Origin: Desulfatiglandales bacterium
GTDB taxonomy: Bacteria > Desulfobacterota > DSM-4660 > Desulfatiglandales > Desulfatiglandaceae
Direction: 5' to 3'
NCBI GenBank assembly: GCA_963662465.1
Contig: OY759599.1
Span: forward strand, 992,001 to 1,056,000
DNA: 64,000 bases
Part shown: in pieces, positions 1,673 to 25,264 of the stretch
How the letters are laid out: every line of letters begins with the position of its first letter
Numbering within the stretch: position 1 is the stretch's first letter
Notes under the pieces: model-generated
Told to the model about the DNA's origin: nothing
The model's input: the letters and a program-made list of their open reading frames with translations, nothing else
Databases searched by the model: none
Position numbers and translations under genes: made by a program

Positions 1673-2690
1673 AATAGCGATCTTTCTGTCTATGATTGTT
1701 GGGTTCCGCTTTTATGACCTGGCGCGAGGATTTGTGGTTCACATACAGACCGCCGGAGTTTCAAAACACCGGAAATGCCGACTCAAGAATAACCGATCGA
1801 ATCCTACACCCAAGTCCTGTGATTGTTTGACAGACTTCCAAAGCGAAAAAAATTGGTTCAGAAGACCATTTACGAGATAATACCTTTCTACCATCCAACC
1901 CCTACATATTGTGGTTGTCAAATTTCTGATTTCATTGCAGATATAGCAGTAATCAGAAGTTCTTCATTGATAATAAATAGTTAATGGATTAAGAACTTTT
2001 TCTTCGTTGAAATGGTACAAATAGAATTAGTGCCTTATCACCAGGTCTTTTGTCACAAAAAACAAGAAAATTTTCACACTATGGAAATGCAATCGACCCC
2101 AATAGCTAAAAGGTCAAAGCTGAAAGCTCAAAGGAAAATGCAATCTGCCTCGCCTTTCACCTTTCAGCTTCGAGTTAAAGTGAGACTTTGTGTTGCGTGC
2201 AGTGCTCGCCTTAGCTTTTAAGAATGCTCTCTCTTTTCTGGTTTGATCGAAAAATCTGGCTCAAAAGCAGTAGAAACGAAAGAACACATTTTGAACATCC
2301 GTTGTTGACATGCACGCCGGGGAAATATTAGTCTCCTTAATAAAAGGACCAAGATTTACACGTCGCACTGACGTTGATATTTTTATTGAAAACTCGGCTT
2401 CTAAACAGGAAGCAGACCATCGTCTATGGTTTCTTTATGAATCACTTTTCGGGTTATTTAGAGACGCTCAATCGCTTAGAACTCTTTGCCGGAATTTCTG
2501 ATTTAATGAAGGATGCCGAATTATGTTGGCATTGATAACCGCAATTTTTTAAATCTTAACAAGAGGACCCCATAATCTTCCGTTATCCTCTGTTTTTCAA
2601 CCGTAAACCGGCAACCGTAAACTGTGAACGGTTACTTAATTTTATTATCACTTCAACTGAATTTTCACTTAATGGAAGGAGGAGCCAACC

Positions 2691-3794
2691 ATGCTGCAGT
2701 TACTCGTCCATCGAATTGCCCGGGGTTTATCAATGGGGACGTCGGCCGTGGCAGTCTTTCTTGCTGCTGCCCAACTGTTTGCCGCGAGTGCTTCGGCGGA
2801 TCCGTCGACATCCATCGACATCGACGGAATTGTTCCGACCGAAAAAGGATTCGTGGTAACGGGGAAAGTCACTTGCAAAGGGCCGGTGTCTGGTGGCGGT
2901 GAAAGCCACTCTTATCGGGTTTATGCGGTCGCGGATATCAAAGACAGTAAGGTTGCCAGGTTCCCCAAACTTGCCGAGTACTTGGTCATCAGACCGCCAG
3001 CCGGTGCGGAAACCGATGTAGGGCCTGGCAGCGGCCTCGGCAATTTGATGACGATTGAAGAGCGAGACGGCATTGACTGCACGTCGTTAAGAACCGGCCC
3101 GCAGCCCGGAACCGACAAATTCGAGTTGATTATTCCCATCAAGCACGGTGGCAAGATGGTGCGCATACGTGCGTACCTCAACTACCAGTACAACAATGTC
3201 GGCACGCCGTGGCCGATGATTAAATTTTACCACGACATAGGCTACGAAGGGGTGCTGCCATCTGATCAACCCATGAATGAAGGAAAGAACTGGGATCTGA
3301 ATAGTGATTTGCGTTATGGTATCCATCAGATTACACAATATATAAGGAAACGGGCAAAAGACATCCGTGCAACTGACAAGAATATGTCAGATCTGTTAAA
3401 TCTTTATGCTGAAAGAATTTCTAATGCTAAAATTTCTTACAAATCTAAACCCTTGTTTGGCAAAAATGGACAAATGGCAAATTATTGGTGTGGCACTATC
3501 ACTCTTTTTAATGGCATATACCAATACAATGATGTATTTGGCCCAACAAATAAATTATATTCTATTAAAGCAGGCAAGTATAACTTGAGTATAATGGCAA
3601 GTTTGCTCATACATGAAGTAGCCCATTCATATGGGGCGAATGAATGGCAGGCCCATCGACTTCAGCAACTGACTTTTGATGCCTTAGGTGTCGATAAAAA
3701 TAATCCTGTTCGTGATCCTGTTAAGAAATATTTCAAGGCTTATCCTTCGTGGTGGAGCCTTGGCTCACAGTACCTTTATTGGTTACGGATGTAA
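2691..3794 (+). CDS. Secreted protein with C-terminal HEXXH zinc-metallopeptidase-like domain
   Basis: RBS GGAGG, signal peptide (…LFAASASA), LLIHEVAHSYGANE motif. Confidence 0.7.
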   Translation: MLQLLVHRIARGLSMGTSAVAVFLAAAQLFAASASADPSTSIDIDGIVPTEKGFVVTGKVTCKGPVSGGGESHSYRVYAVADIKDSKVARFPKLAEYLVIRPPAGAETDVGPGSGLGNLMTIEERDGIDCTSLRTGPQPGTDKFELIIPIKHGGKMVRIRAYLNYQYNNVGTPWPMIKFYHDIGYEGVLPSDQPMNEGKNWDLNSDLRYGIHQITQYIRKRAKDIRATDKNMSDLLNLYAERISNAKISYKSKPLFGKNGQMANYWCGTITLFNGIYQYNDVFGPTNKLYSIKAGKYNLSIMASLLIHEVAHSYGANEWQAHRLQQLTFDALGVDKNNPVRDPVKKYFKAYPSWWSLGSQYLYWLRM

Positions 3795-3809
3795 CGGGAG
3801 GAATAAATA

Positions 3810-5291
3810 ATGATAATAAAATACAAAACAAATCGAATGATACAGGGTTTGAGTGCCTGCATTGTATTCTTTTTTTTGCCTATTTCGTCTTTGTTTGCAC
3901 TTGAAAATCCGGAAATTGAGAAAAAGATAGACAATTTCGAAAAAGGATTAGCAACAAAAAACATTAATCTTGTTATGCAATCATTCAAGAAAAACGACGT
4001 TTGGCAAGGCGTCATGACATATCCTTACGTCAAGGAGAATGCTGCTGAACTCTTTAACTACTACAAATCCATCAATCTGCAGAGAATCAGACTGGAAATT
4101 TTAGCTCTGGATCAGCGCATTGCCAGTTCTGCAGACTACCTACTGCGGGCAACAACAATGCAGGGCAAGCAGGTCGAGCTGAAAGTCTCTTTCGTCTTTC
4201 TCTGGGAGAAAGGAGAGAACGAATGGCAGATCACAGCAATAAATCCCTTGATCATGGTCCCGGTAGATGGTTCGGTAGCAGATGATCTGAAAAAGATCGA
4301 TCCTGGCAATGTAAGCCAAGACTCGCAGGTTGGCCACTTGTCTCCAGTTGCCGACTCCTATGTCTATGCCTATGCCTACCGGAACTGGAACAAGGCCAAC
4401 TGGGGGAAATCCGGTAGCCTTGGGGCTGGATGGCATCCCACCGGCGGGGAGAAAAGGATATACTTGAAGTTTGACCTTTCCGGTATTGACGTCAAAAAAG
4501 TGGGAAAGGCAACACTGAAACTCTTTCATTATCATACCGGGGGCAAAAATTCTTTATTTCTGGGGGTTCACGCAGTCACCAGCGCATGGCGGGAAGGCGG
4601 GAACACCTACCATTCGGGTCAGACTGAAAAATTTGCTGCAGCTGGTGAAATTAGCTGGGTTAACCAGCCTGCCTTTAATTTTTCCCCTTTGGCAAGCTTC
4701 AAGCCCGGCTCAAGAGAAGGTAAATATGCTGAAGCGGACATTACGCCACTGGTTGTGGCATGGCTTACAGGGAAACCCAATTACGGGTTAATGATCAAAC
4801 CGATGGGAATTATGTCAGGAAGAGCACCGGAATCTTCCTACGCGTTCTACTCCAGGGAATATCAGGATAAGAACAGACGACCGGTTCTCTGTATTGGATC
4901 TGCGGTGTCGGGATCGCTTGTTCAAGATCCCAAAGGCGAAAAAACAACTGAGCTGGAAGCCAAAATGAGGGATCTGGGAGACCGAATCGGGGCTTACAAG
5001 AATTGTATCTCCCTAGAACGACCCGGGGAAATCATGCTCTACCTGGATCCGCTGACATCTGAATGTATGCCCATTAACATTGCTTCATTCAAGGCCTACC
5101 TGACAGAAAAGGGGTTGACCACCTCAGAAATAAAAGACCGAATGGCGATTTGGGATGAAAAATCTGCTGATGTCAAGAAGAAACTGTTGGAGGATATTTC
5201 ACGAATGGAATCCGAACTCCGCCAGCTTCACAAGAATTCCGGAACGGAAGGAGCCAGTGAAAAGAGGGTAAGCCTCCCACTCAACCCTTGA
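3810..5291 (+). CDS. Secreted multidomain protein: NTF2/SnoaL-like + DNRLRE/CBM96-like + coiled-coil tail
   Basis: Signal peptide; LSPVADSYV…NWG…RIYLKFDLS…ATLKL…NYGLMIK…FYSRE…RPVL pattern of DNRLRE/CBM96 domains. Confidence 0.7.
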   Translation: MIIKYKTNRMIQGLSACIVFFFLPISSLFALENPEIEKKIDNFEKGLATKNINLVMQSFKKNDVWQGVMTYPYVKENAAELFNYYKSINLQRIRLEILALDQRIASSADYLLRATTMQGKQVELKVSFVFLWEKGENEWQITAINPLIMVPVDGSVADDLKKIDPGNVSQDSQVGHLSPVADSYVYAYAYRNWNKANWGKSGSLGAGWHPTGGEKRIYLKFDLSGIDVKKVGKATLKLFHYHTGGKNSLFLGVHAVTSAWREGGNTYHSGQTEKFAAAGEISWVNQPAFNFSPLASFKPGSREGKYAEADITPLVVAWLTGKPNYGLMIKPMGIMSGRAPESSYAFYSREYQDKNRRPVLCIGSAVSGSLVQDPKGEKTTELEAKMRDLGDRIGAYKNCISLERPGEIMLYLDPLTSECMPINIASFKAYLTEKGLTTSEIKDRMAIWDEKSADVKKKLLEDISRMESELRQLHKNSGTEGASEKRVSLPLNP

Positions 5292-5351
5292 GTTGCGCCG
5301 GTTGATTTTCCGGCTGAGGGGTTCTTATTTACTTATCAAAGAGGTATACAC

Positions 5352-6620
5352 ATGACGCGCAAGAGCTTATGGGTTTACGTAACGGTATTTTCAATTGTAG
5401 GATGGTTACTATTGTCTGCGATTTTATCGTTTGCGGGCATGGTGGATGAGCGACCTGATGGACCTGCCAAAGCAGGCTCATCCATAAACGCCTTAAACTG
5501 CAAAGCAAAGGAAGAGGCCCGCTTGCAAGAGCGGATTAATGCCATGAAGGCTGACCCCGGAAGCCTGTTTTATGCCAAGTCAAATCTTTCTCCCGGCGAA
5601 CAGGATAGGATTGCCCAAAGACACCTGAAGGAAATTCAAAAGCTTAATCGGGTGAAGGCCTTTGATTTACCCGACGATAATCATATTCTCGAACATACCC
5701 GGTTGATTCTCCTCGATGCGCCCGATTCGCGAATAGCTCAAATCGCCCATTGGAATCTTCATGTCCTGTATATGACGATGGGAGATGAGGACTCTGCATC
5801 GCAGGCATTAGAAAGCTATATCGACAAATATCCGGAAAACACAGACAGGCGGTTGGAAGCTTTCGACAAGCTGTTTCTGTTTGCTCAGAGGCGGGGGGAC
5901 TGGGGGGCAGCCCTGTATTACGCGGAAAAACGGTTGGCGTTAGATCCCAATAACTCCGTTTTCATGCTGACGAAAGCCAGAGCCCTCCTCCGGCTGGGAG
6001 ACAGGGAAGGCGGCCGAAAACTCCTTGCGCGAATCCTCAAGGAAGATGAAGGATCGGTTCAGTATAATCTGGCCATGATGGAGGTGGAGCGTTTGCAGGC
6101 CGGAGCGTATGACAAACCCTCAGTTAAAGAGTTCCCGAATAAATCCCTGGCTCCGGCTCACGGCCAGATAAAGGTCAGTGAACAAACAGACGAAACCGGC
6201 AGGCAAACGGCTGATTTGAAGCGGTCGGATTTGCACCAGACATCGGTTGCTCCGCCAGCGGATGAGAAAGAGGTTTCAGCCGGGGATCCACTACTGGTCG
6301 ATCAATACCAGCTGACCCTCAAGCGAATGAAACAGCTCGCAATGGGCAGCCAAATTTTCGAACTCCATAACGATGCCCTTCCTTCAAGCCTTCAGGAGTT
6401 ATTGAAAAATGGATACGCCAAGGAAGAGTTTATGCGGGATGCATGGGGCCAGGAGTTTTATTTTAAGGCGGATTCCGTAAATAAAATCTGCTGGGTGGCC
6501 AGCGCCGGTAGCGATGGCAAATTTCTTGGATTCGACCAGAAGGGGGCCTATACCCATCTTCTGGGGCAGGACATCATCGCCTTCGGCACAGATTTCATCT
6601 TTGCTCCCGAATTTAAATAG
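5352..6620 (+). CDS. Exported TPR protein with C-terminal GspG(T2SSG)-like domain
   Basis: N-terminal hydrophobic segment, TPR-like helices, C-terminal LPSSLQEL…DAWGQEFYF…SAGSDGKF…DI resembling the pseudopilin DPWG/SxGxDG motifs. Confidence 0.6.
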   Translation: MTRKSLWVYVTVFSIVGWLLLSAILSFAGMVDERPDGPAKAGSSINALNCKAKEEARLQERINAMKADPGSLFYAKSNLSPGEQDRIAQRHLKEIQKLNRVKAFDLPDDNHILEHTRLILLDAPDSRIAQIAHWNLHVLYMTMGDEDSASQALESYIDKYPENTDRRLEAFDKLFLFAQRRGDWGAALYYAEKRLALDPNNSVFMLTKARALLRLGDREGGRKLLARILKEDEGSVQYNLAMMEVERLQAGAYDKPSVKEFPNKSLAPAHGQIKVSEQTDETGRQTADLKRSDLHQTSVAPPADEKEVSAGDPLLVDQYQLTLKRMKQLAMGSQIFELHNDALPSSLQELLKNGYAKEEFMRDAWGQEFYFKADSVNKICWVASAGSDGKFLGFDQKGAYTHLLGQDIIAFGTDFIFAPEFK

Positions 6621-17072: not shown

Positions 17073-19048
17073 TTGGAGAAGCGATTGGCGAGAATATTAA
17101 TTTTACTGAATTGTGCTATACTTCTGTTGGTCTTACTTTCGCCGGCCGTTGCCGAAAGTGAAGCTGTTCCCAGAGTCCTGATTCTTCATTCCTACCATTC
17201 TCCCTATGTTTGGACTGACCGTATTATGGACGGCATGATGAGCATTCTACGGCTGGCCGATGATAAAATCGACATTTATACGGAATATCTGGATGCGCAG
17301 AGAATCCCAAAACAAGCATCCTGGCCGGCTTTTGAGCACTGCCTGAAGGTCAAGTACGCAGGTGAAAAATTTGATGTCATTCTGGCCTCAGACGATGATA
17401 TGCTCGATTTTTTGATTCCCCGGTACGAGGCCTTGTTTCCCGACACCCCTGTTGTATTTTGCGGCATCAACAACCTGGATGAAAGCAGATTTGAAAAGCA
17501 CCGCGCATTCAAGGGGGTCAATCAGGAAATTGATGCCAAAGGAACCATTCTGCTCGCGCTGAAACTGCTGCCGGACACTGAAAAAATTCTGGTCATCTCG
17601 GATCGAACCTCCGGCGGCATCAAAACCACCCAAAAGTTCAAGAACGATATCCAGGAAATGGGCACTTTGAAGCAGAAGTTTCAACTGATGGACGATTATA
17701 CGCTGCCGGCACTTAAGAAACGCCTTCAAGCGCTTGGGCCCAACGACCTTGTTCTGGTGCTCAGAATTCAGAAAATCAAAGGAATCGACGAGCGATCCCC
17801 TGCCCGATTCGCGAAAATCGTAACGGACACGGCGCCGGTTCCGGCCTTCAAGCTCTGGGACATTGGTGAAAGTGATTTTGTGGGCGGTGTCTTGGTGTCA
17901 CCCTTTGAACAGGGCAAAACCGCGGCGGAAATCGCCTTGAGGATCCTTAAAGGGGAAGGTTTCAGAAATATTCCACGGGTGACCGGAAGCCCCAATGTTT
18001 CCATGCTCAATTATGCCGTCATGAAAAAGTTCAATATCAATCTAAAAAACATTCCCGACGGCACCACGATAACCGATCGCCCGATTTCGATTCTGGAAGA
18101 ATACTCGGGCCTGGCCCGTCTTGTTTTGTTCATTTTCGTGGTAATGGCTTTGGTTGTTCTTTCGCTCGTTATCATCCTCTTCCAAAGGAGAAAAAGCGAG
18201 AAACTGATTCTAGAGAGCAAAAGAAAGTTGTTTGAAAGTGAAAAAAATATCGCCTTATTGTTGAAAATCAAAACGAACTGGTGGTTAAATTCGACAATAA
18301 TAAGAGAATTCTGTATGTGAGCCCCACTTACTGCAAGACATTTGGGATCAATGAGGACGAAATACTTGGAAAAAGTTTTTTCCCATTAGTCCACAGAGAC
18401 GATCTTGAGGCCGTTAAGAAATCCATCGATTCTTTGACCAAACCACCTTATAGAACCTACCATGAAGAGCGTGCTAAAACTGTCAACGGTTAGCGCTGGT
18501 TCGCTTGGTCTTTGAAAGCTTTGATGGATGAAAATGGCGATATCAATGAAATTATTTCGGTTGGAAGGGACATCACCGAGCAGAAAAATCGGGAAGAAGC
18601 CCTGATCAAGAGCGAATCTTCTCTTCGGGAAGGTCAGGAAATTGCCAAGTTCGGCAACTGGGAAATGGACGTCTCATCAAAGTGGATCGCCTGGTCGGAT
18701 GAAAATTTTCGGATCTTTGGGATAGACCGACCACACGAGGGAGGCCTGTCATTCGATGATTTTATGAAATTCGTGCACCCGGATGACCGCGCTTTAATTT
18801 TTGAACTCTGGGAGAGAGACTTGCCGCCAAGGGACGTTCGAAATTAGAGTACAGGGCGATTCGTCCGAATGGTGAGATCCGCTGGATCTCTGGGCGGGGT
18901 AAAACATACTTTGACGAAAACGGAACCCCTGTAAGGATGTTTGGGGTCTTACAGGATGTCACCAAACGCAAACAAGCAGAAAACGATTTGAAGATAAGCG
19001 AAAACAGACTGAAAAATATCATTGAAAGTACCACGAATCTTTTCTATT
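17073..19048 (+). pseudogene. Hybrid sensor histidine kinase, 5' part (ABC substrate-binding-like periplasmic domain, TM, PAS domains), degraded
   Basis: VLILHSYH…EYLD sensor motif and PAS motifs. Frameshift in the A-run at ~18241, TAG at 18491, frameshift near 18840; interrupted by the transposon. Confidence 0.85.
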
Positions 19049-19298
19049 CTTCAACGCTAATCAAAACTGAACCAAGTTTGCTAATGGAAATTGAACCATT
19101 GGCTGTCACCGCCGGTGAGTACGGCCCTCAGGTATAGCGGACGATGAGGGATCCATAAGTGGCGGCAAAGGAGTCGTTGATGTAGATTTACTTTTCAATA
19201 AATTTTTATAAAATCTATTTTCTTTGGATTTGGTTTTCTTCTTCCAAGACAGAGGCTTGGTTAAGTGGAAATGCGATTTACTTTGTAGAATGGATGGT

Positions 19299-19334
19299 GA
19301 AGGCCCGAAGTAGCCGCTTCGGGCCTTCTTTTTT
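19299..19334 (+). terminator. Intrinsic terminator in the transposon leader
   Basis: Perfect 12-bp stem GAAGGCCCGAAG/CTTCGGGCCTTC, 6-nt loop, followed by T6. Confidence 0.85.
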
Positions 19335-19410
19335 GACCACCGGATAGAGCCGGAAGCCACACACACGCCAATTTTATATAAGTGTGTTTCCGGCCAATTG
19401 CAAGGCTGGA

Positions 19411-19827
19411 ATGATGGGAGATGTCCTTTTAAGAGTGGTTCAATGCCGATGTTGTGGTTGCTTTTTTCACGTCTGTCGGTCGTGTTGGCGTGGCCAGGCC
19501 TATTGTGGGGAACGATGTCGCAGGATACGCCAAAGACAGCTGCACCGGAAAGCTCAGGGGAAATACCGCAATTCGAAAAAAGGGAAAGAGCGCCGTCGTT
19601 TGTACGAAAAAACAAAAAAATCCAAAAAAAATGGACTGAACCCTGGTGATGATAGTTCAACACCTCAAAAAGACTGTGATATTGAACCCAAAAAGCGGTC
19701 GGGGAACCGACCCAGCTGTCTTTTTTGCGGGTCGATCGGGGTTGTTGTGGACCATTTTCCTCGCCGTGCTTATGCAGGGAGGGTTTTTTCAGATGTAACA
19801 GGCTTTGAGAAAACCCCATATCCATGA
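19411..19827 (+). CDS. Cys-rich basic (Zn-finger-like) transposon accessory protein
   Basis: CRCC…CRSCWRGQAYCGERC, a basic helix, and a second CLFC pair. Confidence 0.7.
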   Translation: MMGDVLLRVVQCRCCGCFFHVCRSCWRGQAYCGERCRRIRQRQLHRKAQGKYRNSKKGKERRRLYEKTKKSKKNGLNPGDDSSTPQKDCDIEPKKRSGNRPSCLFCGSIGVVVDHFPRRAYAGRVFSDVTGFEKTPYP

Positions 19828-19839
19828 CAGGAGAAAAAA

Positions 19840-20259
19840 ATGATCAAAAAAAGAGTCCTTTTTCCCGAAAGAGTGCGTGTCATCAATGGAAGCTTCGGCT
19901 TTCTGGAGCATCGTTTTTTGAGAAACGGCTTTTGGGAGAGCCTGAATCATCATGAGCTGCTGCTCTACATTTTTCTGGTGTTGGTATCTGACAAAAACGG
20001 GCTCTCTTATTATGGTTACGACAGAATCTGCCGGATTTTAAAGGTGCATTTGGATCAATATATCGATGCCCGCGATGGCTTGTTGGACAAGGATCTGATT
20101 GGGTTTGATGGCCGTCTGTTTCAGGTTCTTTCGCTTCCCAGACGTCCTGTGATTGTGAAACAGGTAAAGGAGATCCGGCAAGGAAATTGGGTCAGTCTTG
20201 GAGAAACCATAGAGGAAATCTTTCGGGAGACTGGGTATGGAATCCATCCGAACCGTTGA
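19840..20259 (+). CDS. Winged-HTH-like transposon accessory protein
   Basis: RBS AGGAG; ELLLYIFLVLVSDKNGLSYY…ICRIL resembles the N-terminal HTH of phage/plasmid replication proteins; overlaps the next gene. Confidence 0.7.
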   Translation: MIKKRVLFPERVRVINGSFGFLEHRFLRNGFWESLNHHELLLYIFLVLVSDKNGLSYYGYDRICRILKVHLDQYIDARDGLLDKDLIGFDGRLFQVLSLPRRPVIVKQVKEIRQGNWVSLGETIEEIFRETGYGIHPNR

Positions 20260-21121
20260 TATTCATTTGCTGGAGTTGCGTTACGCTCATTGCCGGATAA
20301 TGAATCACCAGGCTTTAAAGCGATTGAGGGATTCCATCGAAACTTACGGGCAGATCGTTCCGGCCCTGGCTATTGAAGAAAAAGACAAACTGATTCTGAT
20401 TGATGGCTACCTGCGTGTTCGAGCGCTTTGTGCTTGTGGAAAGGACCGGATATGTGTCCAATTCTCAAAAGAAAACGAACAAAATGCCATGTTTTCGCTT
20501 TTAACCAAGGCCAATGAACGGCAATGGGAAGTCATTGAGCAGTCTGTTTTACTTCAGGAATTACATCGGCGTTTTGGGTGCAGCCTCTCCCATATTGCAA
20601 CCCGAATAGGGCGCGACAAGAGTTTTGTAAAACGGCGGCTGGACCTGGTTGAAGCCCTGCCGGAAAATATTTTGAGAACCGTGATTGCAGGCTCACTTTC
20701 AACCTGGGCTGCCAGCCGTGTCATGGCGCCGTTGGCGCGCGCCAACGGTGAAGACGCACAAAAACTGTTGGCCCACCTGGAAAAAGAACCTCTATCCACA
20801 AGGGAACTGGCCCGTTTCTACGCACATTACCAGAAAAGCAACCGGTCTGTTCGAGACCACATGCTGGAAAATCCATCCCTTTTCATAAAAGTTCTCGAAC
20901 AAAGAACCCAGTCTAAACAAGCCAAAGAAGTTCATGATGGACCGGAAGGCAAATGGTTCAAGGATATTGAAATGGTATATGCGGTTCTCAAACGTCTGGT
21001 GAAAACCGTTTCGCATGTCCATTACCCAAAAAGCGATCAGTTGAAGAAACAAACGCTCAAAACCTGGGTGAAAAAGATAGAAAAACAAGCACTGGAACTC
21101 AAGAAAGCGACCCAATTATGA
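20237..21121 (+). CDS. ParB/Spo0J-like protein (ParBc + HTH)
   Basis: LRDSIETYGQIVP…LIDGYLRVRAL, then SLSHIATRIGRDKSFVKRRLDL HTH; ATGA overlap with istA. Confidence 0.9.
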   Translation: MESIRTVDIHLLELRYAHCRIMNHQALKRLRDSIETYGQIVPALAIEEKDKLILIDGYLRVRALCACGKDRICVQFSKENEQNAMFSLLTKANERQWEVIEQSVLLQELHRRFGCSLSHIATRIGRDKSFVKRRLDLVEALPENILRTVIAGSLSTWAASRVMAPLARANGEDAQKLLAHLEKEPLSTRELARFYAHYQKSNRSVRDHMLENPSLFIKVLEQRTQSKQAKEVHDGPEGKWFKDIEMVYAVLKRLVKTVSHVHYPKSDQLKKQTLKTWVKKIEKQALELKKATQL

Positions 21122-22500
21122 TCCGACAATCCAAAAAAGATGCCATTGTGGAATTGAAAAAAACCGGCATGAGTTTGCGCGACATCGCCAAAACCCTGAA
21201 GGCCGGTCGCAATACCGTCACGAAGGTTTTAGATGATCATGACGAAGAGGCGGTACCCCAAAGGAACTCCCGGTATGAAGAACATGTCCCGTTGATCCGC
21301 GAGCTTTTCAAGGAATGTAAAGGAAATGCCGTGCGAGTAGCCGAGGAACTGGAAAGCCGCCAACAGATCAAAATCCCTTATCAGAGTCTGACCTGGATTA
21401 TGAGAAAGTACGAGATCCGGGAACGTAAAAAAAGACGGGCGGGCCAATACCATTTTAAACCCGGTCAGGAGATGCAGCATGATACGTCACCCCATCTGGT
21501 TGTCATTAATGGGAAAAAAATGTCGACCCAGTGCGCGTCCCTGACCCTGGCCTTTTGCCGAAGGATTTTTATTCAGTATTACCCCTGTTTTACCCGGTTT
21601 GAGTGCAAGGTTTTCCTAAAAAAAGCATTCGAGTTTATGGACGGGGTGTGTTCCCGGTGCATGGTTGACAACACCAATGTTATTGTGGCCGGCGGCACCG
21701 GGCCTGATGCATTGATTGCGCCTGAAATGAAATACTTCGGCGATATGTATGGAACCCGGTTTGAGGCCCATGCTGTAGGAGACGCCAATCGAAGTGCCCG
21801 TGTGGAAAGGCCTTTTCATTTTGTGGAAAACAATTTTCTTCCCGGTAGAACATTTGTTAGCTGGCAGGATTTGAACCGGCAGGCAATCGACTGGTGCCGG
21901 AATACAAGCGATAAAAAGTTTAAACGGGCTTTAGGGATGACGCCGGATGAGGCCTATGTCATTGAAAAGCCATATCTCATTGATTTACCGGCATACCAGC
22001 CGCCAGTCTATGTGGCAGAACACAGGGTAGCCGATGTTCAGGGATATGTGCACTTGGACACCAACCGCTATTCAGTCCCTGAAGCGCTGATTGGGAACTC
22101 CCTGGAAGTACAGAAACATTGGCTCAAGGTCATCGTTTACGACAAAAACACAAAAGTGGCGGAACATGACCGCATACTGGATAAACGCAACACCCGAACA
22201 ACCCTGCCCGGTCACCATGTTCCCATTCGAAGAAAAAAAGATCCCCGAATCCCTTCAAAAGAAGAACAGCTGTTGACGGGAGAGGATGCCATCCTGGATG
22301 AGTATGTGGCTGAACTGAAGAAAAGAAGTCACGGTCGCGGTGTGGTCAAGTTACGTCGGTTGCTTCATCTGAAACGCACTTATCCCGGGGAACCTTTTTT
22401 GAAAGCCATAACACAGGCGCTTAAATATGGACTTTTTGATTTGTCGCGTCTGGAAAACATTATTCTCGATTATATCGCGGGAGACTTTTTTGATCTATGA
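21118..22500 (+). CDS. istA: IS21-family transposase
   Basis: N-terminal HTH; PGQEMQHD, MVDN and ARVERPF DDE motifs; C-terminal NRYSVP. Confidence 0.93.
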   Translation: MIRQSKKDAIVELKKTGMSLRDIAKTLKAGRNTVTKVLDDHDEEAVPQRNSRYEEHVPLIRELFKECKGNAVRVAEELESRQQIKIPYQSLTWIMRKYEIRERKKRRAGQYHFKPGQEMQHDTSPHLVVINGKKMSTQCASLTLAFCRRIFIQYYPCFTRFECKVFLKKAFEFMDGVCSRCMVDNTNVIVAGGTGPDALIAPEMKYFGDMYGTRFEAHAVGDANRSARVERPFHFVENNFLPGRTFVSWQDLNRQAIDWCRNTSDKKFKRALGMTPDEAYVIEKPYLIDLPAYQPPVYVAEHRVADVQGYVHLDTNRYSVPEALIGNSLEVQKHWLKVIVYDKNTKVAEHDRILDKRNTRTTLPGHHVPIRRKKDPRIPSKEEQLLTGEDAILDEYVAELKKRSHGRGVVKLRRLLHLKRTYPGEPFLKAITQALKYGLFDLSRLENIILDYIAGDFFDL

Positions 22501-23216
22501 AAAAGAAAATTGAACAGTTACTCATTGATTTGAAGTTTAAAGGCATGCTGAAGGCTCTCGAAGAACAGTTGGCTTCGGCTGAAAAGAACGGTTTTTCCAT
22601 TCACGAGGTCATCTACAATCTCCTGGCTGAGGAATTACGTTTCCGGCAGGAGCGCAGCATGATCTATCGGGTCCAGATTGCAAAGCTTCCATGGGAATGG
22701 ACCCTCAACTCCTTTCCGTTTGATCTTCAGCCGGGAATACAGAAGAGCCGGATCATGACGTTGTCCGGCCTTGACTTTATCAGCCGAAGAGAAAACATCG
22801 TGTTCCATGGAAAAACCGGCGTCGGCAAAACGGGATTGGCCGTGGGGATCCTTCGTCAAGCCATTATTGCCGGGTACCGGGGGCGTTTTTATAATGTTCA
22901 GGATTTGCTGGATCAGCTCTATGCGTCTTTGGCAGATCGGTCCACCCCGAAACTCCTCAATGCCCTTTGCAGATATGACCTGCTTCTGCTCGATGAACTG
23001 GGATACCTGACCCTCAAAAAAGAGCAGATGAACGCCTTTTTTAAACTCATGAAAGATCGCTATGAAGCCGGTCGGTCCACAATTATTACGACCAATCTTC
23101 AACCTGAACAATGGTATTCGCTGCTTGAACCAAAGGACATGGTCGATGCCTTGCTGGATCGTCTCAACCATCGCTGCATCAACATTCATATTGATGGTCC
23201 TTCCCTCAGAAAATGA
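22497..23216 (+). CDS. istB: IS21 helper AAA+ ATPase
   Basis: Walker A GKTGVGKT, Walker B LLLLDELGY, IITTN, ALLDRL; ATGA overlap with istA. Confidence 0.95.
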   Translation: MKKKIEQLLIDLKFKGMLKALEEQLASAEKNGFSIHEVIYNLLAEELRFRQERSMIYRVQIAKLPWEWTLNSFPFDLQPGIQKSRIMTLSGLDFISRRENIVFHGKTGVGKTGLAVGILRQAIIAGYRGRFYNVQDLLDQLYASLADRSTPKLLNALCRYDLLLLDELGYLTLKKEQMNAFFKLMKDRYEAGRSTIITTNLQPEQWYSLLEPKDMVDALLDRLNHRCINIHIDGPSLRK

Positions 23217-23314
23217 GATGTTCGCCAAAGGGCCGGTTTTGAGGTCTGAATATCACCGGTCTGTTTGAATCTCGTTACACGAATATCAGAAATTACCTTG
23301 TCTTGGAGCTTGAA

Positions 23315-23512
23315 ATGAGAGGTGGAAAACGGGTAGGCGCCGGCCGAAGAAAGAAACCGGAACATTTGAGACGTGAACTGCTCACCATTCGTCTCCCCAA
23401 ATGGATGATTCTACAGCTGAAAAAAAACGGGGAAATTGGATATTTGATTGAGGATCAATTGGCGAAGGGAGGCCTCCTGAATTTACCGGACGACTATGAC
23501 ATAGACAAATAG
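23315..23512 (+). CDS. Small basic DNA-binding-like protein (RGGxRxGAGR + RHH-like)
   Basis: RBS GGAG; MRGGKRVGAGRRKK…TIRLP; lies inside the transposon TIRs. Confidence 0.65.
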   Translation: MRGGKRVGAGRRKKPEHLRRELLTIRLPKWMILQLKKNGEIGYLIEDQLAKGGLLNLPDDYDIDK

Positions 23513-23773
23513 TTCCTCAATAAGCATTGCCCTTAACCGAAAAATCTAATCCCCTCTTCTCTGCCATCACCATATTGATGGTATCCTCATCACTGATTCT
23601 TCAACCAGAACGCTACGTGTCTCACCAGCATTTTTAAAATACCATCTGATATACTCTTTCATGCAACCTCTAACAAATTTACAAGAAAACCCTTCTAAAA
23701 GGAAAAGACCAGTGCGCAATATCTGGTTCCGTTTGGAGTAGCAAAACTGGTTCCATTTTGGTTAGCGCCCAAG

Positions 23774-25264
23774 TTTCTATTCCCATACGGCAGACTACGA
23801 GGTAACGTTCATCAGTCCGCAGGTTCGAGAATATCTGGGCTATGAACCGGAAGAAGTAATGCGGCGCTGGACTGAGTTTATTACCGATAATCCCATTAAC
23901 AAAAAGGGAATGGAATTTACCGAAAAAGCGATTCGAACCGGGAAACGTCAGCCCACCTATGAACTTGAGATGCGCCGTAAAGACGGCAGGAAAATCATTG
24001 TCGAAGTGCGGGAAGCCCCGGTCGTTAAGGATGGTACGGTGACAGGAGTCGTCGGCTTGCTTGTGGACGTCACGCATGAACTCAATCTTGAGGCCCAGCT
24101 CATTCAGGCCCAAAAGATGGAGTCTGTGGGTCGATTGGCGGGAGGGGTTGCCCATGATTACAAAATGCGCTTTCCGTGATCATCGGTTTCTGTCAACTGG
24201 CCATCGAGAATGTGGACCCCGGCGACCCGCTTCGTGGAGATCTCGATGAAATCTACGGGGCAGCAAAGCGTGCGGCGGATATTACCCGGCAACTGCTGGC
24301 CTTTGCCCGAAAACAGACCATCTCCCCTAAAGTTCTTGATTTAAACGAGAATGTGGAAGGGATGCTTAAAATGCCGAACCGCCTGATAGGCGAGAACATT
24401 AATCTTGTCTGGGCGCCGGGGAAAAATCTGTATCCCATCAAAATGGATCTATCTCAGATCGATCAGATCCTGGCCAACCTCTGCGTCAACGCCCGTGACG
24501 CGATTCCCGGTGTCGGAAAGGTCATCATCGAAACAAAAAACAGCGTCTTTGATAAGGCCTACTGCGCTGATCACCACGGGTTTGTTCCCGGCGAATTTGT
24601 TCTGCTGGCGGTTAGCGACAATAGCAGCGGCATGGAAAAAGAAGTTCTGGATAACATTTTTGAGCCGTTTTTTACCACCAAGGGCATCGATGAGGGAACC
24701 GGTCTGGGGTTGGCCACGGTCTACGGCATTGTCAAACAGAATGAAGGATTCATTAATGTTTACAGTGAATCCGGGGCGGGAACGACCTTCAAAATCTTTT
24801 TACCCCGGCATAAGGGCAAAACGGTTCAAGAGGATCAGGAAAGCGTTCCGGAAATCCCTCAAAGCAAGGGAGAGACCGTTCTTCTTATAGAGGACGATCT
24901 TTCGCTTCTGGAACTTGCCGGGAAAACGCTTGATGGACTGGGCTATAAAGTTCTGAAAGCAGGCACACCTAAAGAGGCCATGCGTCTGGTTAAGGATTAT
25001 ACCGGAGAGATAAACCTTCTGCTGACAGATGTCATTATGCCCGAAATGAACGGTCGTGAATTGTGGGAAAAGTTGGAAGCGCTCTATCCCCAACTCAAAT
25101 GTGTTTTTATGTCCGGCTATACAGCCAATGTCATCGCCCATCACGGTGTCCTGGATGAAGGCGTACACTTTATCCAGAAACCGTTTTCCAAAAGCGATTT
25201 GGCAATAACCGTCAGGAAAGCGCTGGACGAGGTGAAAAAACCAACTTCCGGAACGCCACACTGA
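23774..25264 (+). pseudogene. Hybrid histidine kinase, 3' part (PAS, HisKA, HATPase, receiver), frameshifted
   Basis: QAQKMESVGRLAGGVAHDY with a frameshift at ~24165; NLCVNARDA, FEPFFTTK, GTGLGL, LLLTDVIMP, FIQKPF. Confidence 0.9.

Follow-up and report, generated by a model that had tools for sequence, protein, structure and literature searches.

An IS21-family insertion sequence carrying a ParB-like gene and a candidate parS-like operator

The window analyzed here, a 64,000-nucleotide stretch of a Desulfatiglandales bacterium (contig OY759599.1, positions 992,001 to 1,056,000), holds at 19049-23773 an IS21-family element of 4,725 bp, with exact ends set by 25 copies in the source genome. The element belongs to a widespread IS21 subgroup in which genes for a ParB-like protein and a zinc-ribbon (Zn-ribbon) protein are fixed parts. 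What is new here is a conserved palindrome inside parB, with a second clade having its own palindrome at the same codons, and this is likely to be a parS-like operator. With slightly less than an even chance, in our estimate, ParB and its palindrome form an orphan ParB/operator pair that governs how the element itself is expressed or transposes. Literature searches did not bring up IS21 elements with ParB, and a 2025 survey of the ParB-CTPase fold, which in its main text describes orphan ParB homologues as common on mobile elements, has in that main text no matches for transpos, IS21 or IstB (PMC12704722). The element, its genes and the palindrome are as follows.

19049..23773, + strand: whole element, IS21 family, 4,725 bp; copies have identical ends, and contigs break at both ends
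19411..19827, + strand: Zn-ribbon gene, 138 amino acids from ATG 19411 (GTG 19384 as alternative start); CxxC...CxxxC; no known family
19840..20259, + strand: winged-helix gene, 139 amino acids; weak match to PF13730 HTH_36
20237..21121, + strand: ParB-like gene, 294 amino acids; ParB N-domain with GxxR (G57, R60), ParB helix-turn-helix (HTH) and helical C-terminal part
20729..20748: candidate parS-like operator, a perfect 20-bp palindrome CCGTTGGCGCGCGCCAACGG inside parB, coding for PLARAN
21118..22500, + strand: istA, DDE transposase, 460 amino acids
22497..23216, + strand: istB, AAA+ helper ATPase, 239 amino acids
23303..23512, + strand: small basic open reading frame (ORF), 69 amino acids, no family

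A word-indexed search for relatives of the ParB-like protein gave 984 at E 0.001 or better, many of which come from 4-5-kb contigs; in an exhaustive search, 439 cluster representatives reached E 1e-30 or better. A genome scan for ParB, restricted to one genome per species, returned 80 loci, and those in which ParB was complete enough and followed by at least 200 bp were regarded as testable. In 62 of the 63 testable loci an IstA start lies within 300 bp after ParB and IstB comes next; the one locus that departs from this, L088, has a ParB that is truncated at its 5' end and lies at the edge of a contig. The scanned loci are labeled as Desulfobacterota, Gammaproteobacteria, Acetobacteraceae, Verrucomicrobiales, Thermodesulfovibrionia and Planctomycetota metagenome-assembled genomes (MAGs), and ParB identity goes down to 36%. 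Conversely, when a 401-genome sample of the phylum was searched with IstA, ParB was found upstream in all three matches of at least 50% identity. A distant ParB, 22% identical, occurs in an IstA clade of 31% identity to which a second element type of the source genome also belongs; one locus of this clade (L119) is without ParB upstream, and its IstA is near-identical to that of L113 from the same genome but cut by a TGA stop. There is no ParB in L098, with an IstA 36% identical, and in a far IstA group of about 25% identity Zn-ribbon and winged-helix genes are present and ParB is absent. In L097, another row of the distant clade, IstA begins at the contig edge, which leaves no upstream sequence for this comparison. 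In an IstA tree (quick search, LG+G4) the main ParB clade of 18 rows and the distant ParB clade are sisters, with 99% support in the SH-like approximate likelihood-ratio test (SH-aLRT), and L098 falls outside. Because of this topology the association between ParB and IS21 is probably old and due to one acquisition.

Trees of ParB and IstA built for the same 30 elements, from which loci with broken or partial genes had been left out, share 20 of 27 splits; in 2,000 label shuffles the mean was 0.2 shared splits and the maximum 3. Patristic distances in the two proteins are correlated (r 0.87; Mantel test, 0/2,000), with ParB evolving 1.36 times faster. The ratio of nonsynonymous to synonymous substitution rates (dN/dS) in close pairs is 0.14-0.33 for ParB (7 pairs), 0.08-0.29 for IstA, 0.03-0.22 for IstB, 0.15-0.67 for the Zn-ribbon gene and 0.10-0.31 for the winged-helix gene; since it is below 1 for each gene, every gene is under purifying selection. 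All six genes are present in all 21 full-length copies of the source genome, in contrast to the two genes of the classical IS21 organization. The initial annotation had suggested that the extra genes are translationally coupled to the transposase rather than loose cargo, and had called for a search for ParB-istA-istB synteny and a comparison of the two phylogenies. Both came out in its favor, the closest IstA homologues do carry ParB, and together with the 21 full copies and the dN/dS values these results support the view that the element carries the extra genes as fixed and conserved components.

Two further IS21 types were seen in the source genome. The second ParB-carrying type has two copies, L127 (G000:C1:8093000-8101000) and L123, and its ParB, IstA and IstB are 22%, 31% and 35% identical to those of the window. 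In L127, ParB lies at 2246-3142, IstA at 3120-4604, IstB at 4513-5343, an ORF at 5340-5834 and a small ORF at 5904-6113; in this type a CHC2 DnaG-type zinc-finger ORF (PF01807, E 9.9e-8) comes after IstB, and the small ORF is 78-80% identical to that of the window. The third type, L124 (G000:C1:5955000-5963000), is present in three copies; a 900-amino-acid frame similar to IstA (23%) comes first, and between it and IstB (28%) the small ORF is found twice in tandem.

The peptide PLARAN, encoded by the palindrome, is invariant in the ParB family. Every one of the 25 copies has CCGTTGGCGCGCGCCAACGG a single time, and the genome has one further occurrence, where chance would give about 0.03 matches to the 16-mer pattern on the basis of base composition. 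The peptide motif is present in 36 of 41 related loci, of which all 36 match TTGNCGCGCGNCAA and 27 match TTGGCGCGCGCCAA exactly; adjoining codons vary freely among these loci, and relatives that keep the palindrome at synonymous sites have ParB proteins only 36-55% identical. TTGNCGCGCGNCAA is found once in 91 ParB loci and twice in none. Codon use was compared in 23 hand-picked representatives, one per near-identical group of the 36 motif loci. A single codon serves for Leu (23/23), Ala (20/20), Arg (23/23) and the other Ala (22/22), and Pro is CCG in 83%, against a major-codon share of 0.45 on average and 0.65 at most in the other 42 conserved four- and sixfold degenerate columns. Likewise invariant are the two third-codon positions at the would-be RNA loop. 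Symmetry is kept in L065 (ATTGGCGCGCGCCAAT) by two synonymous changes, and in L094 (ATTGCGCGCGCAAT) at the cost of two amino-acid changes, to PIARAM. At the homologous codons, and in the same register, the distant ParB clade has a different perfect 16-bp palindrome; it reads GTTCATACGTATGAAC in L127 and L250, and L249 differs from these symmetrically (GTTTATACGTATAAAC). When metagenome contigs were searched with the 18-mer alone, 80 readable loci were obtained, 54 of them in a ParB-like frame, and IstA follows in 43 of the 44 testable ones; the remaining 26 loci are not in ParB frames and belong to unrelated, heterogeneous, mostly G+C-rich genes.

Taken as a whole, the palindrome is conserved as DNA; it is superimposed on coding sequence and varies by ParB/IstA lineage. 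Its natural ligand would be a dimeric protein encoded by the element, and ParB is the obvious candidate because proteins of the ParB family are known to bind 16-bp palindromes as HTH dimers. Half-sites elsewhere in the element were looked for and dismissed, since the six one-mismatch matches, which include GTTAGCGC at the right tip, compare with about 3.5 expected by chance. The source genome also has, at G000:C1:3732981 and 3733252, a solo, diverged right end and, 272 bp away, an orphan copy of the 18-bp palindrome outside any parB frame, which may be a deletion derivative with its end point at the palindrome. A motif next to this orphan palindrome was also rejected; its reappearance in L199 is explained by an M48-like peptidase on that contig, whose sequence includes LARANGIP.

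The ParB-like protein itself has retained much of what defines the family. Its family profile matched 14 ParB/Noc/Spo0J sequences of solved structures over the N-domain and HTH, with 7bnk/7bnr as the best matches (E 9.7e-15, ParB residues 27-204), 7bnk being the Myxococcus ParB. Box I (GQxxP) is invariant, G57 and R60 of GxxR are invariant in 18/18, and of 150 diverse representatives 133 have DG[YFH]xR. A divergent arginine patch, reported by the initial annotation, was also evident in the alignments: GYLRVRA replaces GERRxRA, so that the second Arg of GERR is changed, and at the positions aligned with ENLQR the catalytic Glu has given way to Lys or Ala (KANER/KNNDR). Nucleotide binding is plausible, and because the GxxR motif is invariant a nucleotide-dependent clamp is probable. 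The protein begins at the N-domain, with no leading peptide. Its AlphaFold2 model, with a mean predicted local distance difference test score (pLDDT) of 67.5, is confident for the HTH and the helical C-terminal part only and was left out of the fold search. A complex prediction for ParB and the Zn-ribbon protein scored 0.00 against a mark of 0.32; it was run without controls and counts neither way.

According to the reading that we tentatively prefer, the ParB-like protein would bind as a dimer to the palindrome in its own gene, a parS-like operator, and would probably act as a nucleotide-dependent clamp. From there it would most likely set the expression of the Zn-wHTH-parB-istA-istB operon (wHTH, winged-helix gene) or the frequency of transposition, perhaps in step with copy number. 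The Zn-ribbon, winged-helix and small-ORF proteins are possible small partners of ParB, and action at a distance with such partners would be in the manner of KorB of RK2 and BisD of ICEclc. We favor a self-regulating ParB/operator pair because these two orphan ParBs set a precedent on mobile elements.

Several observations, however, weigh against ParB as a self-regulator at this operator. The type of palindrome co-varies with IstA as much as with ParB, and another protein of the element could therefore be its ligand. If ParB were a stoichiometric partner of the transposase, the tight ATGA coupling of parB to istA would be accounted for no less well than if it were a regulator. With a reduced arginine patch and Lys or Ala in place of the ENLQR Glu, hydrolysis of cytidine triphosphate (CTP) may have been lost, and the N-domain is poorly modeled (pLDDT below 50 for residues 1-77). 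ParB is also the sole varying protein among the 19 copies of equal length, with S160G, R161H, V247A and Q272E at four nonsynonymous sites (window 20714, 20718, 20976 and 21050), S160 and R161 coming shortly before the palindrome-encoded PLARAN; the Zn-ribbon, winged-helix, IstA, IstB and small-ORF proteins are identical in all 19. This could reflect weak constraint on ParB within the genome. Finally, no convincing promoter was identified downstream of the terminator-like hairpin inside the left end (see below), and promoter-like sites are no more frequent (5 found) than in shuffles (5.9 expected).

ParB could instead be a working part of transposition, which from the palindrome helps IstA to pair the ends or acts on IstB to give cis immunity. 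We regard this as less likely than self-regulation, though as the likeliest of the rivals. Coupling to istA by ATGA, co-evolution with IstA and an old association of probably single origin (sister clades at 99% SH-aLRT) would all agree with it, as would a palindrome that is inside the element in 91/91 loci, here 1.7 and 3.0 kb from the ends, and the finding that none of the 25 copies contains a nested self-copy although four carry other insertions. Congruence and coupling are, however, expected from linkage in one operon whatever ParB does. Moreover, the copies make up about 1.4% of the genome, so that only about 0.4 self-insertions would be expected among 25 and the count has no power for self-immunity, and canonical IS21 needs only IstA and IstB, according to two reports (PMC10122671, PMC11208146). 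Because the data are those of sequence alone, a regulator is not separable from a factor for end pairing or cis immunity. More doubtful still, in our judgment, is a ParB clamp that would be an integral subunit of the transposition machine, loading at the palindrome, sliding to the ends and being stopped by IstA at the terminal repeats, where it would pair both ends or switch IstB off on nearby DNA. If true, no earlier transposon would have had a ParB/parS pair as an integral component, and a DDE transposase with its AAA+ partner would be coupled to a nucleotide-gated DNA clamp in a new way.

The conservation of the palindrome could also be due to RNA, in that a hairpin in the parB message might slow ribosomes or be cut and thereby limit expression of istA and istB. 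A 10-pair stem does occur in the minimum-energy structure of 20700-20780, and the symmetric changes in L065, L094 and L249 would keep an RNA stem too. Nevertheless, this explanation is improbable, given that the sequence itself is fixed, with no G-U pair and no free covariation in 36 loci, that the would-be loop bases are invariant at synonymous positions, and that the fold has a z-score of just -1.88, with 8 of 200 shuffles as stable; Rfam contained no family for the palindrome RNA, and no family was returned at E 0.1. Similarly little credence can be given to the idea that the accessory genes serve the element or host outside transposition control, whether by silencing neighbors, by countering defense or as selfish riding regulators. 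The winged-helix gene and the small ORF are 47-80% identical across IS21 types whose transposases are 23-31% identical, and occur with tyrosine-recombinase elements, and such sharing is expected of self-contained portable modules. But ParB is not portable in this way and tracks IstA, none of the four accessory proteins was matched by any PADLOC family, and purifying selection inside a selfish element keeps only functions that aid its spread.

Like canonical IS21 elements (IS21, IS5376), the element has an IstA with N-terminal HTH, invariant D-D-E and Mu-transposase-type C-terminal barrel, an AAA+ IstB with Walker A and B, overlapping istA and istB, inverted ends with several terminal repeats, duplications of 5-8 bp and many copies per genome. 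Unlike them it has four more genes in the operon, a length of 4.7 kb where canonical elements measure roughly 2-2.5 kb, an internal conserved palindrome, and ends reading CTT...AAG where TG...CA is usual; most other IS21 elements of the phylum sample have an IstA only about 25% identical to that of the element. Tn7/Mu-type transposons also combine a DDE transposase, an AAA+ partner and additional DNA-binding proteins in one operon, and differ in that our element has no preferred target site. With ParABS it shares the homologous N-domain and HTH and a 16-20-bp palindrome within parB, and some chromosomal parS sites do lie within the parB gene. It differs in having no ParA, no N-terminal ParA-binding peptide region and a reduced arginine patch, and in having one site per 4.7-kb element, present at 25 chromosomal places.

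KorB also partners a ParA, IncC. In contrast to KorB, which keeps GERR, the element has GYLR, no ParA, one operator and a transposase operon as the likely target. On RK2 the KorB CTP clamp travels as far as 1.5 kb from its operator, and the small KorA locks it at promoters (PMC11790492). The likeness to our element is that a mobile element encodes a protein with ParB N-domain and HTH next to small DNA-binding proteins and has a palindromic operator (a candidate one in our case), with action over 1-1.5 kb being possible (PMC11790492). BisD of the integrative and conjugative element (ICE) ICEclc loads at parS-like sites and activates promoters with BisC, and its nucleotide binding needs the same GxxR arginine (PMC12409273). 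It resembles our protein as an orphan ParB-like protein of a mobile element with GxxR and a parS-like site (a candidate site in our case), and works with a separate small factor; it differs by an extra activator domain and by spreading over about 50 kb of the ICE, whereas the element's protein has 294 amino acids and resides in 4.7 kb.

IS21 serves as a structural model of transposases controlled through an AAA+ regulator, and it is generally regarded as a two-protein system. In a subgroup that is large and broad in phylogenetic range the ParB-like protein, the Zn-ribbon protein and the palindrome have been kept through deep divergence, and parts kept in this manner must matter for the spread of the element. 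This points to an unstudied mode of control of a well-known transposition machine. Orphan ParBs are now known as long-range switches on plasmids and ICEs, and an insertion sequence would be the smallest such system. It is also a simple one, with one operator, one ParB, transposition as read-out and 25 natural insertions in one genome.

The reading of the gene order offered by the initial annotation, six co-oriented genes with overlapping wHTH and ParB and ATGA at both later junctions, was borne out by direct reading of the junctions. On the + strand, the Zn-ribbon, winged-helix, ParB-like, IstA, IstB and small-ORF frames follow one another; AGGAG and a 4-nt spacer precede the winged-helix ATG, the ParB ATG at 20237 lies upstream of the winged-helix stop at 20257-20259, giving a 23-nt overlap, and ParB/IstA and IstA/IstB both overlap by ATGA. 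IstB is assigned by PF01695 (E 3.5e-59) and NF038214 (225 bits, above the cut-off of 200). IstA matches NF033546 with E 1.9e-37 and 129 bits, under the curated 160, and PF22483 with E 9.6e-17. The ParB-like protein matches PF17762 (29 bits, cut-off 22.6), TIGR00180 below its cut-off (E 2e-11) and, weakly, Pfam KorB domains, and the winged-helix protein has a weak HTH_36 match (E 5.5e-5). No family was matched by the first (Zn-ribbon) and sixth (small-ORF) proteins in the family scans. D122, D184 and E230 of IstA are invariant in 30/30 relatives, and Walker A and B of IstB are kept in 29/29. Neither the ORF list nor the family scans contained a ParA-like ORF in the element, in agreement with the initial annotation.

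The ends and flanking duplications are listed here.

19041..19048: left target-site duplication TTTCTATT, 8 bp
19049..19098, + strand: left end, terminal CTTCAACGCTAATC; direct repeats 19056-19074 and 19080-19098, presumed IstA sites
23724..23773, + strand: right end, direct repeats 23723-23742 and 23747-23766; terminal TTAGCGCCCAAG
23774..23781: right target-site duplication TTTCTATT, 8 bp

All 25 copies begin with CTTCAACGCTAA and end with TTAGCGCCCAAG. The inverted arms, 19055-19098 and 23724-23767, are imperfect and 77% complementary over 44 nt, and every end consists of two direct repeats of about 20 nt that lie 24 bp apart, a layout usual for IS21-type ends. The first 51 nt of the left end are kept in elements whose IstA is 60-86% identical. 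In the sequencing run in which the element is best represented, read depth rises from 33-43 outside to about 1,116-1,143 within it, and positions 19049 and 23773 are exactly where contigs stop. Removal of the window copy with one TTTCTATT leaves a 213-amino-acid open frame across the site on the + strand. Precise boundaries with terminal inverted repeats, the 8-bp duplication and a host frame restored on removal, as the initial annotation had described them, are thus all substantiated. The interrupted PAS/histidine-kinase gene (window 17073-18937 and 23859-25264) is broken into several frames besides the insertion, with ORFs at 17073-18320, 18281-18493, 18512-18847 and from 18937 onward on one side and at 23859-24179 and 24176-25264 on the other. 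An extra C behind 24163 is a minority variant in run X1, and the gene may be decaying or the assembly may contain indel errors.

The source genome (8.16 Mb, one contig) has 21 full-length copies, 99.5-100% identical, and a few fragments. A further four copies, at 1533098-1539753, 5974616-5981271, 6833271-6839802 and 6062590-6067428, are split by other insertions, of about 1.9 kb at element positions 365-374 (two copies), about 1.8 kb at 1410-1418 and about 0.1 kb at 3703-3713. Because of these 21 near-identical and four interrupted copies we consider the element a currently active insertion sequence whose six-gene unit moves as a whole. Target duplications flank 19 of the 25 copies (7 bp, n=9; 8 bp, n=8; 6 bp, n=1; 5 bp, n=1) and are lacking in six (3972926, 4239691, 5347739, 5892000, 1533098 and 6062590). 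ATAAGGG is common to the left flank of the copy at 6,067,428 and the right flank of that at 5,347,739, and such exchanged flanks are a sign of recombination between copies and chromosome rearrangement. Circle or tandem junctions were absent from the contigs of four runs, which is uninformative since rare forms drop out of contigs. Contigs of RNA libraries from two metatranscriptome runs cover most of the element, and DNA carry-over may account for this coverage. The plasmid collection gave a single match, of 4%. Near-identical elements (ParB 100%, IstA 98-100% identical) occur in the group L013, L014, L015 and L035, in MAGs labeled Desulfobacteraceae, Deltaproteobacteria and Desulfatiglandales, and the same set includes a 90% relative in a MAG labeled Planctomycetota; either recent horizontal spread or the binning of a multi-copy repeat would explain this.

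The initial annotation had further suggested target selection, end synapsis or circle maintenance as the task of the extra genes taken as one module. Target selection finds no support: the 25 insertion sites have no common sequence and ordinary G+C content, 16 of 19 reconstructable sites are in open frames of at least 150 amino acids compared with a proportion of 0.84 of 2,000 random positions, and the element has the same orientation as the interrupted frame in 8 cases and the opposite in 11, with 14 copies on the + and 11 on the - strand. Replication-strand bias was not significant either (15 of 25 copies co-directional), the origin and terminus being uncertain in this rearranged genome. The ParB-like protein probably does not choose insertion sites. 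For circle maintenance nothing speaks in favor, and there is no ParA. Nor do the three extra genes behave as one module, in that ParB co-evolves with IstA, the winged-helix gene is portable and the Zn-ribbon gene is found also in ParB-less IS21 elements.

In most relatives a Zn-ribbon ORF of about 150 amino acids precedes either ParB or the winged-helix gene. Its four cysteines (CxxC...CxxxC) are invariant in 21/21, the window protein represents a divergent subtype common to NaphS2 and L094, and for this family the ESM Atlas returned unnamed clusters only. The winged-helix gene is confined to two separate subclades of ParB elements, and its homologues are 47-63% identical whether they stand beside an IstA of 54% identity, an IstA of 24% or tyrosine recombinases. 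Examples of the last kind come from the source genome itself: in L120 (4142-4528, - strand) a homologue of 63% identity heads two tandem tyrosine-recombinase genes (PF00589), and in L121 (3664-4059, + strand) one of 58% heads three; the latter array presumably resembles a recombinase-in-trio element. The unannotated ORFs ahead of these homologues (203 or 216 amino acids) did not match the Zn-ribbon profile. The model of the winged-helix protein (pLDDT 81.6) had no Foldseek match in the PDB at E 0.001 or better, the best being N-domains of plasmid RepA-type initiators (E about 0.013) and CRP/MarR winged helices, so that the predicted structure confirms the fold but not the function. Three other element types of the source genome contain copies of the small ORF, at 65-80% identity. 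CATCA...TGATG inverted repeats flanking it were discarded as a feature, being absent near homologues in eight other loci. The winged-helix gene and small ORF are thus portable between transposon types, and transposons swap such small DNA-binding genes as ready-made modules.

Two features precede the operon.

19187..19214, + strand: promoter-like site TTTACT-16-TAAAAT, a consensus match only, in a semi-conserved region
19299..19335, + strand: terminator-like hairpin a short way into the left end, with 13 pairs (8 G-C) and then T6

The hairpin region is 92% conserved over 36 nt in the NaphS2 relative, and the hairpin is predicted to shield the element's operon from outside transcription. Within 19187-19335 the promoter-like site lies about 85 bp upstream of the hairpin, and, beyond blocking read-through, the two could serve as an attenuator or a short leader.

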